A DNA stretch of 64,000 bases from Escherichia phage vB_EcoM_VR20. The position numbers were made by a program, and so were the translations under genes. The notes beneath the pieces are model-generated. The model worked only from the letters and a program-made list of their open reading frames with translations. It was not told where the DNA came from and did not search any database. Location: the sequence record NC_028894.1. The stretch is one strand, 5' to 3'. Below are positions 2,517 to 41,853 of the stretch, in pieces. Positions within the stretch are counted from its first letter, which is position 1. The number at the start of each line of letters is the position of its first letter.

Positions 2517-2822
2517 TTAAATTTTGTTTTCCTGCACACCATAATAAAGTTCATCAGACACAATATCCAGGATGCGGCGAACATATTCATCATGGTATTG
2601 GCAGTCAAAATCAAATGCAACAGTAGTTTCCGCTTCACGAGTGAATTTAACTTGCACATTCAGGTGATTAACAACGTTAGTTAATTTATCAGTAAAGAAC
2701 TCTTTTGCTACCGCCTGTTGGACTTGCACTTTGAACTTGGTGTTACGAATCATATTTTCAGCAGATGTGAAATTACCAGTTTTATCAAAGTCAACAAGCG
2801 CCAGGTTGATGATGAATTTCAT
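2517..2822 (-). CDS. hypothetical early protein
   Basis: ATG at 2822 directly preceded by the conserved leader ...ACACTGGAGAATAAA-ATG and early promoter copy A. Confidence 0.55.
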   Translation of the reverse strand: MKFIINLALVDFDKTGNFTSAENMIRNTKFKVQVQQAVAKEFFTDKLTNVVNHLNVQVKFTREAETTVAFDFDCQYHDEYVRRILDIVSDELYYGVQENKI

Positions 2823-2863
2823 TTTATTCTCCAGTGTTTTATTTGGTAACTCAGTATGGAATC

Positions 2864-2893
2864 ATTATGCCTTAAAGCAGGGGGCTTGTATAC
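2864..2893 (-). promoter_or_regulatory. T4-type early promoter (cassette copy A): -35 GTATAC, -10 CATAAT
   Basis: Minus-strand reading GTATAC-18 nt-CATAAT, followed by the conserved leader ACTGAGTTACCAAATAAAACACTGGAGAATAAA and ATG at 2822. Confidence 0.55.
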
Positions 2894-2904
2894 CCCCTTT
2901 TTAA

Positions 2905-3348
2905 TTAAATTTCAAATTCTTTGCGGAAGTTGGAAGCATAAGACTGAACTGATGCTTTGTTGAATCCAAACTCACGCACAATCATATCAATAACAGCTCT
3001 GCGAGCAGCACCGTTAGACATATTAACAGTTCTGAACATATCATAGCATAAATCTTTGTTGCTCATACCGGAGCGTTTAGGTGCCTTACGTTCAGCTTTT
3101 GGTTCAGCTTTAGGAGTAGGTTTAACTTCTGGTTTAACCTGTCCATCATTCAGACCTTTAAAAATTTTACCTGCCAGAGTTGCCAGTTTAGCAGCTTCGC
3201 CACGAGTGATACCAAATACTGCCGGGTTAAATGAAATACCTTCAGCTGTCAGACGTTTGAAGAACATACGTGCTGCGGATTGTGCTTCAGCTTCAGAAGA
3301 GTTGTTTAATGCCAGTTTAACATACTTAACCAGTTTTGAAGTTTTCAT
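2905..3348 (-). CDS. hypothetical early protein with C-terminal module shared with 3801..4226
   Basis: ATG at 3348; C-terminal ...NGAARRAVIDMIVREFGFNKASVQSYASNFRK matches ...NAARRALIDVLVTTHDIKKTVVQSYASNFRK of the neighbouring gene. Confidence 0.6.
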   Translation of the reverse strand: MKTSKLVKYVKLALNNSSEAEAQSAARMFFKRLTAEGISFNPAVFGITRGEAAKLATLAGKIFKGLNDGQVKPEVKPTPKAEPKAERKAPKRSGMSNKDLCYDMFRTVNMSNGAARRAVIDMIVREFGFNKASVQSYASNFRKEFEI

Positions 3349-3390
3349 TTTATTATCCCGTTTGTTTATTTGGTAACTCAGTATGGAATC

Positions 3391-3420
3391 ATTATGCCTT
3401 AGTTAAATTCCAAAGTACAT
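3391..3420 (-). promoter_or_regulatory. T4-type early promoter (cassette copy B)
   Basis: Minus-strand ATGTAC-18 nt-CATAAT; core GGTAACTCAGTATGGAATCATTATGCC (plus 3372..3398) is identical to copy A. Confidence 0.5.
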
Positions 3421-3421
3421 A

Positions 3422-3718
3422 TTAATTTTCAGAAGTTGGGAAATAAACTTCAAAGTCATACATGTTTACTACTGCAGTCGCGATTGCTTGGTACTGCATA
3501 CCCAAGAAAGTTTTCTTGTTCTTACGCCACAAGTTAACCATTTCTGTTTTGATGCATGCCAGGGAGTAGTTGGATGCAGGATACTGTTTGATGATTGCAA
3601 CAACTTCTTCAGAAGCAGTTTCGCACAATTCATTCAGTTGAGCTTCAATTTTAGCAGAAATGATTGCTTTGTTTTCTTCTTGAGCTTGGGTAGCGTGCCA
3701 TGCAGGTGCGTTGAACAT
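3422..3718 (-). CDS. hypothetical early protein
   Basis: ATG at 3718 preceded by AAACACTGGAGAATAAA leader and promoter copy C. Confidence 0.5.
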   Translation of the reverse strand: MFNAPAWHATQAQEENKAIISAKIEAQLNELCETASEEVVAIIKQYPASNYSLACIKTEMVNLWRKNKKTFLGMQYQAIATAVVNMYDFEVYFPTSEN

Positions 3719-3759
3719 TTTATTCTCCAGTGTTTTATTTGTTAACTCAGTATGGGATA

Positions 3760-3789
3760 ATTATACACTATCCCACCTGGAAGTAAAAC
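3760..3789 (-). promoter_or_regulatory. T4-type early promoter (cassette copy C) with -10 inside a hairpin loop
   Basis: Minus-strand GTTTTAC ... GTGTATAAT; the -10 lies in the loop of the 7-bp stem TGGGATA/TATCCCA (plus 3753..3775). Confidence 0.55.
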
Positions 3790-3800
3790 ACTTTTCTCAA

Positions 3801-4226
3801 TTATTTTTGAGCTTTGCGGAAGTTGGATGCATATGACTGAACAACAGTCTTTTTGATATCATGGGTGGTAACCAGAACATCAATCAGAGCGCGACGAGCT
3901 GCATTATCATTCATATCAATTTCTGCAAATGCCTGGAAGCAAATGTCACGAGCATTACCAGATTTGGACTGGATTTTTTCTTCTTTAACTTCTTCAATTG
4001 GGAATTCAATCATTTCAGCTTGGATTAATTCAATGATAGATTCTTTTGACTGTTTGGTGTTTACCTTCAGTTCAGAATTAAGGGACTTGGCGATGGCAAC
4101 AATCTGGGTTGAAGTCAGATGAATAAGTGCATCTTCACGAATGCAGATTTCACATACTTCGTCAGCAACCATTTTGTTGGTGATGCGGGTAACAGAAAAT
4201 GCAGAGGTCAGGGTCAGAAAGTTCAT
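3801..4226 (-). CDS. hypothetical early protein with C-terminal module shared with 2905..3348
   Basis: ATG at 4226 preceded by GGAGAAATAAA leader; the track start at 4307 is GTG lying inside the promoter cassette. Shared C-terminal motif VQSYASNFRK. Confidence 0.6.
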   Translation of the reverse strand: MNFLTLTSAFSVTRITNKMVADEVCEICIREDALIHLTSTQIVAIAKSLNSELKVNTKQSKESIIELIQAEMIEFPIEEVKEEKIQSKSGNARDICFQAFAEIDMNDNAARRALIDVLVTTHDIKKTVVQSYASNFRKAQK

Positions 4227-4277
4227 TTTATTTCTCCAAAGTTTTGTTTGATTCAGTGTGTAACTCAGTATGGAATC

Positions 4278-4307
4278 ATTATGCGCCGGGTCAATTCGGA
4301 TGTACAC
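4278..4307 (-). promoter_or_regulatory. T4-type early promoter (cassette copy D)
   Basis: Minus-strand AAAAGTAGTGTACA-17 nt-CATAAT, followed by the conserved ACTGAGTTAC core. Confidence 0.5.
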
Positions 4308-4343: not shown

Positions 4344-4366
4344 TAAAAAAGCCCGCAATGCGGGCT
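4344..4366 (-). terminator. intrinsic terminator (minus strand)
   Basis: Hairpin AGCCCGC-AAT-GCGGGCT followed on the minus strand by a U-run (plus-strand AAAAAA 4345..4350); sits just downstream of gene 4368..4922. Confidence 0.6.
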
Positions 4367-4367
4367 G

Positions 4368-4922
4368 TTAGTTCTTATAAAAGCGGAACGGATTTATATG
4401 AAAGGCGAGCATAGCCTTAGGGATGGGTCGGGACAGAAGGCTCTTGAGCTTCCAGCCACAATAAACACGCAGATAAAAGGTGATTCCACCGACCTTAAGA
4501 TAAGGAACAGAAGCAAAAACACCCCAGGCGTTGTCCGTCCACATCCAGAGCCATCCATGATGAGCTTTATCCGGGGAACCAGATTCGACATCAGGATTAC
4601 CTTTATAATGGAATTCTGAATTGCAATCACGACCGAGCTTGTGGTAAGCAAAATTGTATGCTTTGTTTCGCCAGAGCCAGGCTACTCGTTGGAAGTAAAC
4701 ACCTAACGGCCATTTTCTGATTTTTTCCCAGCGTTTAACATGACCACGGTCACCATCAATTGGATTATCGTATGTCATCATCCAGTCAAATCCGAACGGA
4801 AGCTTACCAGTCTTTTTGTTATGGAACGGCACTACAAATGGTGCAAGGATAACAGCCAGAATCATTGAAATGAAATCCAGTGGCACTAACAGAATCCAGC
4901 TTAGATATTTTAAAAGTTTCAT
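4368..4922 (-). CDS. membrane-anchored protein, Trp/aromatic-rich, unknown function
   Basis: ATG at 4922; N-terminal hydrophobic helix (LSWILLVPLDFISMILAVILAPFVV); terminator hairpins on both flanks. Confidence 0.55.
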   Translation of the reverse strand: MKLLKYLSWILLVPLDFISMILAVILAPFVVPFHNKKTGKLPFGFDWMMTYDNPIDGDRGHVKRWEKIRKWPLGVYFQRVAWLWRNKAYNFAYHKLGRDCNSEFHYKGNPDVESGSPDKAHHGWLWMWTDNAWGVFASVPYLKVGGITFYLRVYCGWKLKSLLSRPIPKAMLAFHINPFRFYKN

Positions 4923-7565: not shown

Positions 7566-7799
7566 TTATTTTTTACGGAAAATTGATTTATACTGTTTAG
7601 CCCATTTCTCGATAACTTCTGCTGGACCCTGGATAACAAAATAGTCCCCAAACTCTTCACCGCCGAGCTGACCGTAATTATCTAAGGCGTCGCGGAGAGT
7701 TCCATAAGGCATTTCGCCCATTTTATCTTTCTTGCCGGTGTAAATGAATTGCACTTTAACATCAGCAGTTTCATTAATAAATTCTTGATAAGTTTTCAT
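7566..7799 (-). CDS. internal-protein-like small protein with N-terminal capsid targeting sequence (MKTYQEFINE)
   Basis: N-terminus MKTYQEFINE-T matches the T4 IP capsid targeting sequence with a prohead protease (gp21) type cleavage motif; own promoter/RBS module; adjacent to 57B as ipI is in T4. Confidence 0.7.
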   Translation of the reverse strand: MKTYQEFINETADVKVQFIYTGKKDKMGEMPYGTLRDALDNYGQLGGEEFGDYFVIQGPAEVIEKWAKQYKSIFRKK

Positions 7800-7824: not shown

Positions 7825-7854
7825 ATTATACTGCAGTTATCCCATCACGTACAC
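7825..7854 (-). promoter_or_regulatory. early promoter with -10 in hairpin loop
   Basis: Stem GATGGGATA/TATCCCATC (7816..7846) with loop carrying TATAAT on the minus strand; GTGTAC -35 at 7849..7854. Confidence 0.55.
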
Positions 7855-8132
7855 TAAATTTTTGTATATTGTCCAGCTTTAACTTTTTTCAGTTCACGAG
7901 GGCTTACCGCGTAAGTGAATGGAGCATTCCAGGAAGAACTGACTTTGTAACCTTTAGTCAACATCATTGCTGAAACTTTCTTGTTATCAGGACCGTTTTC
8001 GCCTTTAACAAGAAACAACTCAAATGCGCCACCATCAACCGGTTTGGCCTTAACCATCAGATGTCCTTTCAGGTCTTCCAGCATATCCGGGTGACTAATT
8101 GATTCGTTAATAAATTCTTGATAAGTTTTCAT
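7854..8132 (-). CDS. internal-protein-like small protein with CTS (MKTYQEFINE)
   Basis: N-terminus MKTYQEFINE-S; unrelated body; own promoter module upstream. Confidence 0.7.
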   Translation of the reverse strand: MKTYQEFINESISHPDMLEDLKGHLMVKAKPVDGGAFELFLVKGENGPDNKKVSAMMLTKGYKVSSSWNAPFTYAVSPRELKKVKAGQYTKI

Positions 8133-39855: not shown

Positions 39856-41415
39856 ATGAAAAAGAATGCATTAGTTCAAAAATGGTCCGCTCTGTTGGAA
39901 AACGAAGCTCTTCCGGAAATCGTTGGTGCTTCTAAACAAGCTATCATCGCTAAAATCTTTGAAAACCAGGAACAAGATATCCTGACCGCTCCAGAATACC
40001 GTGACGAAAAAATCTCCGAAGCATTTGGTTCTTTCCTGACCGAAGCTGAAATCGGTGGTGACCATGGTTATGATGCTACCAATATCGCTGCTGGCCAGAC
40101 CTCTGGTGCAGTAACTCAGATTGGGCCGGCAGTTATGGGTATGGTTCGTCGTGCTATCCCGCATCTGATTGCGTTTGATATTTGTGGCGTACAGCCTCTG
40201 AACAACCCGACTGGCCAGGTATTTGCCCTGCGTGCAGTTTACGGTAAAGACCCTGTCGCTGCTGGTGCTAAAGAAGCTTTCCACCCGATGTATGCTCCGA
40301 ACGCTATGTTCTCCGGTCAGGGCGCCGCTGAAGCTTTCGAACCTCTGGCTGCAAGCAAGCTGCTCACCGTTGGTAAAATTTATTCTCACTTCTTCGAAGC
40401 AACCGGTTCTGCACACTACCAGGCTGTTGAAGCTGTAACCGTTGATGCTGGCGCTACTGATGCTGCTAAACTTGACGCTGAAGTTACCAAACTGCTCGAA
40501 GCTGGTAAGCTGGCAGAAATCGCTGAAGGTATGGCTACCTCTATCGCCGAACTGCAGGAAGGCTTCAACGGTTCTCAGGATAACCCGTGGAACGAAATGG
40601 GCTTCCGCATCGATAAACAAGTTATCGAAGCTAAATCCCGCCAGCTGAAAGCAAGCTACTCTATCGAACTGGCACAGGACCTGCGCGCTGTTCACGGTAT
40701 GGACGCTGATGCCGAATTGAGTGGTATTCTGGCTACCGAAATTATGCTGGAAATCAACCGCGAAGTTATCGATTGGATTAACTACTCCGCACAGGTTGGT
40801 AAATCTGGTATGACCAACACCGTTGGCGCTAAAGCTGGTGTGTTCGACTTCCAGGACCCGATTGATATCCGTGGCGCTCGTTGGGCTGGTGAAAGCTTTA
40901 AAGCTTTACTGTTCCAGATTGACAAAGAAGCTGCTGAAATCGCTCGTCAGACTGGCCGTGGTGCAGGTAACTTCATCATCGCTTCCCGTAACGTAGTTAA
41001 CGTACTGGCTGCAGTTGATACCTCCGTATCTTATGCTGCTCAGGGTCTGGGTAAAGGTTTCAACGTTGACACCACTAAAGCTGTGTTCGCTGGTGTTCTG
41101 GGTGGCAAATACCGTGTATACATCGACCAGTATGCTCGCGCAGATTACTTCACCATCGGTTACAAAGGCGCTAACGAAATGGATGCTGGTATCTACTACG
41201 CACCATATGTTGCACTGACCCCGCTGCGTGGCTCTGACCCGAAAAACTTCCAGCCGGTTATGGGCTTTAAAACCCGTTACGGTATCGGTATTAACCCGTT
41301 CGCTGACCCGACAGCTCAGGCTCCGACCAAGCGTATTCAAAACGGCATGCCGGACATCGTTAACAGCCTCGGCTTGAACGGTTACTTCCGCCGCGTATAT
41401 GTTAAAGGAATTTAA
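39856..41415 (+). CDS. 23: gp23, major capsid protein
   Basis: 519 aa; long stretches recognisable as T4 gp23 (LTEAEIGGDHGY..TNIAAGQTSGAVTQIGPAVMGMVRRAIP; FKTRYGIGINPFA...YFRRVYVKGI). Confidence 0.97.
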   Translation: MKKNALVQKWSALLENEALPEIVGASKQAIIAKIFENQEQDILTAPEYRDEKISEAFGSFLTEAEIGGDHGYDATNIAAGQTSGAVTQIGPAVMGMVRRAIPHLIAFDICGVQPLNNPTGQVFALRAVYGKDPVAAGAKEAFHPMYAPNAMFSGQGAAEAFEPLAASKLLTVGKIYSHFFEATGSAHYQAVEAVTVDAGATDAAKLDAEVTKLLEAGKLAEIAEGMATSIAELQEGFNGSQDNPWNEMGFRIDKQVIEAKSRQLKASYSIELAQDLRAVHGMDADAELSGILATEIMLEINREVIDWINYSAQVGKSGMTNTVGAKAGVFDFQDPIDIRGARWAGESFKALLFQIDKEAAEIARQTGRGAGNFIIASRNVVNVLAAVDTSVSYAAQGLGKGFNVDTTKAVFAGVLGGKYRVYIDQYARADYFTIGYKGANEMDAGIYYAPYVALTPLRGSDPKNFQPVMGFKTRYGIGINPFADPTAQAPTKRIQNGMPDIVNSLGLNGYFRRVYVKGI

Positions 41416-41438: not shown

Positions 41439-41466
41439 GGGACCCTTGAGGTCCCTTTCTTGTTTT
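41439..41466. terminator. bidirectional intrinsic terminator between gene 23 and the inserted minus-strand gene
   Basis: GGGACC-CUUGA-GGUCCC with TTTCTTGTTTT on the plus side and AAAAA upstream (U-run on the minus strand). Confidence 0.75.
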
Positions 41467-41747
41467 CATACCATACCATTTAAATGAACTTCTACCCGGC
41501 GCTTGATGAGGTCTCTGAAATTAACACTGTTCTCTTGAAGTTTCAACCAGGTACCTGATTTGTCTTTGGTGTGAGTAGAATAATTACCATTCCACCAAAA
41601 ATCAGTATCATATGCTAAGTTTTCATATTTTTTAACTAGTTTGTTCAGAGCATTACCATTAACACCATTTGGGTATTTGTTGACCAATGCAACAACTTCA
41701 ATTTCCAGATTTTTAAAGGTATTCCGAAGGAAAGATACTTTGTTCAT
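41466..41747 (-). CDS. small early-type hypothetical protein inserted between genes 23 and 24
   Basis: ATG at 41747 preceded by the conserved leader (GGAG-TCTAAA-ATG) and promoter cassette copy E; the track start 41759 lies inside the leader. Confidence 0.55.
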   Translation of the reverse strand: MNKVSFLRNTFKNLEIEVVALVNKYPNGVNGNALNKLVKKYENLAYDTDFWWNGNYSTHTKDKSGTWLKLQENSVNFRDLIKRRVEVHLNGMV

Positions 41748-41783
41748 TTTAGACTCCATTGTTTGGTAACTCAGTATGAAATC

Positions 41784-41813
41784 ATTATGTCTTATCTTAA
41801 TCAGGTTGTAAAC
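41784..41813 (-). promoter_or_regulatory. T4-type early promoter (cassette copy E): -35 GTTTAC, -10 CATAAT
   Basis: Minus-strand AAAAGTTGTTTACA-17 nt-CATAAT followed by the ACTGAGTTACC core seen in copies A-D. Confidence 0.55.
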
Positions 41814-41819
41814 AACTTT

Positions 41820-41827
41820 TATAAATA
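41820..41827 (+). promoter_or_regulatory. late promoter TATAAATA (gene 24)
   Basis: Exact TATAAATA 27 nt upstream of the gene 24 ATG. Confidence 0.7.
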
Positions 41828-41853
41828 AAGTATATCACAAAAGGAAAGCGCAA

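Follow-up and report, generated by a model that had tools for sequence, protein, structure and literature searches.

A C-terminal module shared by two small proteins of Escherichia phage vB_EcoM_VR20 that differ in their N-terminal domains

Two minus-strand genes of Escherichia phage vB_EcoM_VR20, gene A (2905..3348; 147 aa, pI about 10, net charge +12) and gene B (3801..4226; 141 aa, pI about 5.7), both taken from the ORF listing, encode proteins that end in the same kind of C-terminal module and begin with unrelated N-terminal domains. All positions refer to the window, i.e. the whole stretch of 64,000 nucleotides that was analysed (NC_028894.1), unless another record is named. The same module is found behind several types of N-terminal domain and also alone, which gives good support to the original prediction of domain shuffling onto a common C-terminal module.

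All genes of the A/B region lie on the minus strand. In the annotated VR25 genome the region is placed between the e.6 homologue and the tRNA-Arg/tRNA-Met genes, a location that corresponds to the variable (hyperplastic) region extending from the lysozyme gene e to the tRNA cluster, and both tRNA genes were found in the window too. The Gaprivervirus phages (VR7, VR25, SP18, P479 and others; Straboviridae, Tevenvirinae) are 96-99% identical across it. A matches phrog_18416 at E=1e-92 and is 98-99% identical in VR25, P479 and further Gapriverviruses. B matches phrog_9997 at E=1.5e-71, and its 141-aa form, with the ATG at 4226 and a GGAG Shine-Dalgarno sequence upstream, agrees with the annotated VR25 gp150. 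Between the two genes lies a 98-aa ORF (ORF98, 3422..3718, minus strand, phrog_27242), a variable insert with its own cassette (3716-3788), and the next gene downstream of A (ORF 2517-2822, minus strand) also has a promoter and leader cassette of its own. In Yersinia phage vB_YenM_P8 (PP693301, L001:7288-7773) the B orthologue is recorded as two CDS; tblastn recovers one unbroken 141-aa frame that is 96% identical, and the split looks like an annotation error and not a frameshift.

The shared module and the unrelated N-terminal domains

On comparing A with B by BLASTP a sole local alignment was obtained, A 71-143 with B 68-138, in which 31 of 73 positions are identical (E=2e-17). Over the segment that starts at the invariant Cys and ends at the final Lys, the two modules agree at 22 of 43 residues without any gap, and their Smith-Waterman score is 125 against 21.3 +/- 4.2 for shuffled sequences (n=2000, z=24.5). 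No similarity was seen in the N-terminal parts (z=2.5, under the best shuffle) or in the linkers (z=0.8), and profile-profile alignment of the two N-terminal domain families by hhalign gave no relationship (probability 0.06%). The original prediction had described a near-identical C-terminal segment with differing upstream parts, and both parts of that description hold on these values. A six-frame search of the window turned up the module in A and B only.

It could be argued that the similarity arises by chance, from low complexity or composition, or from a very recent gene conversion, with no shared functional domain behind it, since the BLASTP alignment extends partly through the charged linkers and the last 30 nt of the modules (2919-2949 vs 3812-3842) are identical at 28 of 30 positions, the remaining module having ~50% nucleotide identity. 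We give this explanation hardly any probability. The 12-residue window entropy of the module is normal (2.7-3.4 bits) as against 2.2-2.4 bits in the Lys/Pro/Glu-rich linker of A, which is the only low-complexity stretch, and the pairwise alignment thus shows similarity beyond that stretch. With the z value given above, chance or low complexity is excluded as the source of the A/B similarity. Also, the module is kept in 13 protein clusters from several phage genera, and its sequences sort by architecture and not by genome. As for gene conversion, A and B agree in 8 of 10 codons at their 3′ ends, barely more than the 4-6 of 8-10 seen in other phages, where the same 30 nt are identical at 22-25 of 30 positions. 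A recent conversion was therefore considered unconvincing, and the 28/30 match probably reflects codon bias together with the invariant peptide.

AF2 models of both proteins were built on shallow alignments (19 sequences for B and 5 for A), with a mean pLDDT of 84.9 for B and 75.7 for A. In the A model an N-terminal helical domain (aa 1-60, 3169..3348; helices 3-15, 19-36 and 49-58) is followed by a Lys/Pro/Glu/Ala-rich linker (aa 61-95, 3064..3168) and by the module (aa 96-147, 2908..3063; helices 97-105, 113-127 and 131-145), for which the pLDDT is about 90. The linker noted in the original prediction is thus present; it has the lowest entropy and is predicted to be disordered (about 60-96 in the model, pLDDT <50 at 70-91). 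In the B model the N-terminal domain (aa 1-78, 3993..4226) has three short strands, a helix at 39-49, an extended loop at 50-60 and a second helix at 61-74. A short, acidic linker of low confidence (aa 79-90, 3957..3992; pLDDT <50 at 84-87), which is predicted to be disordered, leads to the module (aa 91-141, 3804..3956; helices 92-100, 108-122 and 126-140). All of these parts are encoded on the minus strand.

The two N-terminal domains have faint likenesses to known domains. In 4 of 5 A-type N-domains the best Pfam match, or the sole one, was PF10979 (DUF2786), aligned in register, and the N-domain of A has an L-A-L-x-x-S-x-x-x-E-A-x-x-A-A pattern in line with it; but the scores (E 0.02-0.11, 12.9-15.0 bits) fall below the 23.9-bit gathering threshold, making this a consistent lead without membership. 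The literature search gave no known function for DUF2786. The B N-domain is predicted to resemble the helix-extended-helix motif of Rho-N, SAP and HeH domains, but it has no Pfam Rho_N match. A profile search of either N-domain against the PDB returned nothing below E=0.25. A-type proteins have a pI of ~10 and a net charge of +8 to +13, except the divergent A2-type P0027 and P0033. The B-type proteins as a whole are slightly acidic, many of them with a pI of 5.2-6.7.

Architectures and phage distribution of the module

A word-indexed search of a 5.8-billion-protein database with the module profile returned a single 29-aa fragment, and an exhaustive search was hence needed. By HMMER, the profile identified 13 true clusters among 1.84 billion cluster representatives, all of small proteins, and judged by these sequence matches the family is narrow and phage-only. 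Searches of Pfam, NCBIfam and PADLOC assigned neither A nor B nor the module-only protein to a family at a significant level. All three are full-length members of PHROG families (18416, 9997 and 17275), but these are kept as three separate families of unknown function and their shared module is unrecorded; phrog_18416 (A) and phrog_9997 (B) both cross-match phrog_17275, a 71-position profile, via the module.

Five architectures were obtained: the A-type N-domain with linker and module, the B-type N-domain with module, a third and divergent A-like N-type with module (P0027 and P0033), an A-type protein with an extra inserted domain (P0032, 198 aa), and the module alone (69-74 aa). Module sequences cluster with their architecture and not with their genome, which places the duplication as old and the fusions as older than the divergence of these phages. 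The exception is P0031 / Rgz1 gp126 (74 aa), which is a B-type protein with the N-domain deleted.

The module-only protein (VR25 gp167, VR7 ORF277c; 71 aa, phrog_17275) is encoded outside the window, 2 bp upstream of motA (L007:39306-39521 in VR25), and is present in nearly all Gapriverviruses. Three module copies were found in 31 of the 44 matching records. T4 has at the equivalent position motA.1, an unrelated 49-aa protein; no T4 homologue of the module was found and no record of a Tequatrovirus-group phage matched.

A and B occur close together in the Gapriverviruses, in Morganella phage MP1, and in Erwinia phage RF1 and its ~45-kb metagenomic relatives, and in a metagenomic T4-like contig (L011) they are directly adjacent. 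The RF1-type phages are not T4-like (their terminase and that of Yersinia phage PY100 share only ~52% identity). In them the B/A pair is an islet of divergent orientation next to the genes for terminase and portal (L012:5001-6266, L003:2710-4182). The presence of the pair in T4-like as well as in non-T4-like ~45-kb phages implies its horizontal transfer. Acinetobacter phages 133 and ZZ1 have B only, on the strand opposite to its neighbours. In VR7 a deletion cuts A off after residue 62, and A is thus dispensable for a viable phage. Every genome examined, including VR7, Rgz1 and the Acinetobacter phages, keeps at least one module copy.

We also considered A, ORF98 and B as a conserved three-gene unit, which was ruled out: in MP1 and RF1 the place between A and B is taken by genes with no homology to ORF98, and ORF98 is absent in UPEC01. 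A metagenomic protein of 710 aa (P0038) is made up of ~13 tandem repeats of ~48 residues (EDWNNGLSEEEILEKYNIKKSTLQTYLSQARKRGIEVK). These have a weak similarity to helices 2-3 of the module (E=1.5e-5 as the sum of 5 stretches), and the protein seems to string HTH-like units together in an unusual tandem array.

Predicted fold and possible function of the module

Structure prediction gives three helices for the module in both AF2 models (pLDDT 83-91), with a helix 2-turn-helix 3 arrangement of homeodomain-like/tri-helical geometry that superposes at ~2.2 A on solved homeodomains. The predicted ~50-residue, three-helix topology is that of Engrailed (1du0), MATalpha2 (1k61), Oct-1 POU (1pog) and a BEN domain (4x0g). 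As in homeodomains, the third helix is the longest and the most conserved, and basic residues stand just before helix 1; unlike homeodomains, the module conserves a Cys and a Phe within helix 1 and has an I-D-M loop, features without a counterpart there, and its family is confined to phages. In a forced alignment with homeodomain sequences, Y, N and R of the module pair with W48, N51 and R53, which concerns register only and carries no statistical weight. Against the PDB the module profile gave weak homeodomain matches (2da3 at E=0.019, 5hod at E=1.2), and the single B module sequence gave no match of any kind. In fold searches the Bcl-2 family, HEAT/TOG repeats and designed miniproteins score like homeodomains, no homeodomain is among the top 60 fold matches of the A model, and a BFVD search returned uncharacterised family members only. 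Pfam and NCBIfam gave no HTH or homeodomain family match for the module at E<=1-5. A profile match to TAL effectors in the PDB (whole-chain E=1e-15) was rejected as an artefact, being the sum of 11-23 of their 34-residue repeats that singly score -2.6 to +4.4 bits (per-stretch E>300).

Helix 3, VQSYASN(F/Y)RK, is the most conserved segment across 26 members, VQSY being invariant and S.N.R nearly so. On a helical wheel V, Y, A and F/Y lie together on one side, opposite Q, S, S, N, R and K, and such an invariant, purely polar/basic exposed face makes it look like a recognition helix. The module is also basic in most members (pI 8.5-9.8). The original prediction had left the choice between an interaction and a localisation module; a nucleic-acid-binding domain seems to us more probable than a localisation signal.

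From the predicted structure, the conservation patterns and the context we infer the fold, nucleic-acid binding, early timing and any host-takeover role. Our preferred reading, held tentatively, is that the module would be a homeodomain-like HTH domain that binds nucleic acid via helix 3, alone or behind auxiliary domains, in small, dispensable early accessory proteins. A and B would then be small, non-essential, early-expressed accessory proteins of a T4-type phage, and the target of the module would most likely be DNA. The hydrophobic face of helix 3 would pack on helices 1-2 and its polar face would contact the target. The differing N-terminal parts may lend the same binding specificity different properties. 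From A would come a helical domain like DUF2786, together with a disordered and strongly basic tail, rich in Lys and Pro, that hints at a coating of DNA in the manner of histone H1; the contribution of B would be a helix-extended-helix domain resembling SAP/Rho-N. Since HeH/Rho-N-like domains and Lys/Pro-rich tails are usually associated with nucleic acids, we counted them in favour of binding, and the retention of at least one module by every examined genome was counted in favour of the module as the functional core. Counted on the other side were the acidic B-type proteins, the promiscuity of three-helix bundles in fold searches and the missing HTH family match. No candidate DNA target of the module was identified, and the literature on DUF2786 and Gaprivervirus gave no functional work on these proteins.

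The main rival to nucleic-acid binding is a protein-protein docking domain that would bring the N-terminal effectors to one host or phage partner (e.g. RNA polymerase or sigma factor, a nucleoid or a defence protein), which we consider somewhat unlikely. A single fully invariant helix face fits any conserved partner, the module-only gene of VR25 is probably co-transcribed with motA, the B-type proteins are acidic overall, and some HTH-like folds in T4 serve protein binding, small helical early proteins such as AsiA using them to bind host proteins. However, the exposed conserved face is devoid of hydrophobic residues, which is more typical of nucleic-acid contacts, and the same helix 3 is found across Escherichia, Morganella, Erwinia and Acinetobacter hosts, so that a protein partner would need to be very conserved. 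Doubtful to a greater degree is an oligomerisation domain that would join A, B and the module-only protein into hetero- or homo-oligomers, with the activities residing in the N-domains. The co-occurrence of A and B at close range in the Gapriverviruses, MP1, the metagenomic T4-like contig and the RF1/PY100-like ~45-kb phages suggests that both proteins work together; but B is alone in the Acinetobacter phages, VR7 is without a functional A and Rgz1 has the bare module only, which indicates that the module is valuable without a partner paralogue (homo-oligomers are compatible with this). Also, the conserved surface is polar and not hydrophobic. In the broadest form of the nucleic-acid reading, A, B and the module-only protein would be a new phage-restricted, homeodomain-like, DNA-binding family for host takeover or anti-defence, addressing a common conserved gammaproteobacterial target via one recognition helix. 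The A/B pair would be a functional unit of two genes and would travel, early promoters included, between the unrelated 170-kb T4-type and ~45-kb PY100/RF1-type phages; this extended version is unlikely as a whole.

The proteins themselves already have catalogue entries, both as hypothetical proteins and as PHROGs without a known function. Unannotated in the libraries searched are the link between these families, the domain boundaries, the probable fold, the pairing of A and B across lineages and the cassette dynamics. The module is a new sequence family with what is predicted to be a very common fold, modular shuffling has already been described for T4-type phages, and the A/B case is a fairly ordinary one of domain and gene-cassette shuffling among phage accessory genes. 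To our knowledge, the early genes found in variable regions of T4-type phages mostly lack a known function. Here three PHROG families of unknown function are joined by one compact domain, absent from Pfam and probably of a nucleic-acid-binding fold, and several hypothetical proteins receive a single testable handle, one 50-residue domain with one invariant helix. The result is of use for annotation and for the choice of experimental targets, and leaves current understanding unchanged.

Promoter and leader cassettes

A conserved element of ~75 nt precedes each of four consecutive genes, ORF 2517-2822, A, ORF 3422-3718 and B, with the copies at 2820-2892, 3347-3419, 3716-3788 and 4234-4306. It consists of a sigma-70-like promoter (TGTACA/TTTACT, N16-17, CATAAT/TATAAT) and a leader containing CCATACTGAGTTA. 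For B the promoter and leader (4227..4306, minus strand) read TGTACA-N17-CATAAT, then the leader GATTCCATACTGAGTTAC and the GGAG Shine-Dalgarno sequence. For A (3349..3419, minus strand; repeat families D1/D2) TGTACT-N17-CATAAT is followed by the same leader, and the -35 hexamer is weak and was missed by the promoter scan. Hairpins overlap or precede the -35 hexamers: in the cassette of gene 2517-2822 (2820..2898, minus strand) a stem-loop at 2879-2898 overlaps the hexamer, and a terminator-like hairpin with a T-run (4350..4366, minus strand) lies between the DUF7338 gene and the B promoter. The label of early genes, given in the original prediction, has one kind of evidence in its favour, the sigma-70-type promoter-like elements before each gene.

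We considered the leader CCATACTGAGTTA as an operator specific to A and B, and rejected it because it precedes four consecutive genes and has a fifth copy with one mismatch at 41767-41779. This fifth promoter and leader (GTTTACA-N17-CATAAT-GATTTCATACTGAGTTACC) precedes a 97-aa ORF (41466-41830, minus strand) that runs opposite to the gp23-like major capsid gene (39856-41415, plus strand) and lies directly downstream of it, and 41466-41830 is an early-type cassette inserted among late genes. The promoter of the B orthologue in Acinetobacter phages 133 and ZZ1 is similarly built (GTTTACA-N17-CATAAT). The leader in these two phages (L005:2690-2735, L006:2700-2740) contains an inverted repeat, ACTCA(T)...(A)TGAGT, which could form an RNA hairpin; the B leader of the window keeps CATACTGAGT but not the inverted repeat.

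UPEC01 lacks the 369-nt ORF98 cassette that lies between B and A, and the alignment blocks on the two sides of the gap overlap by a repeat of 49-50 nt. Composite early-promoter cassettes known as PeSLs (promoter-early stem-loop) have been described in T4-type phages (Arbiol et al. 2010, PMC2839356; Comeau et al. 2014, PMC4122927). The present region has the features of such cassettes: composite early-promoter motifs recur on either side of small variable ORFs within a hyperplastic region; the close relative UPEC01 lacks exactly one ORF cassette, and its junction falls within the repeat; and a stem-loop overlaps or precedes the -35 hexamer. It differs in that the repeat runs ~45 nt into a conserved 5′ leader (GATTCCATACTGAGTTACC...) and in that the hexamers (TGTACA / CATAAT) are unlike the published consensus sequences. 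The genes may evolve and move, PeSL-style, as self-contained cassettes with their own early promoter and leader. Shuffling of this kind explains the movement of whole genes but not the in-frame fusion of the module to different N-domains, which needs separate and older events. The recurrence of A and B in unrelated backbones, taken with the natural cassette deletion whose junction falls within a promoter repeat, makes a clear example of the reshuffling of promoter-bearing cassettes and of protein domains among phages.

Two other small ORFs in the window (7566-7799 and 7854-8132, both minus strand) begin with MKTYQEFINE, and upstream of each stands a promoter repeat of its own, the two being nearly identical (families D3-D5). 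This start resembles the capsid-targeting sequence of T4 internal head proteins. Upstream of B, the minus-strand gene at 4368-4922 encodes a 184-aa membrane-like protein that is a full-length DUF7338 (PF24027, E=1.5e-62). It is labelled 'holin' in several GenBank records, which is probably a mis-annotation since a t holin is annotated elsewhere in VR25.
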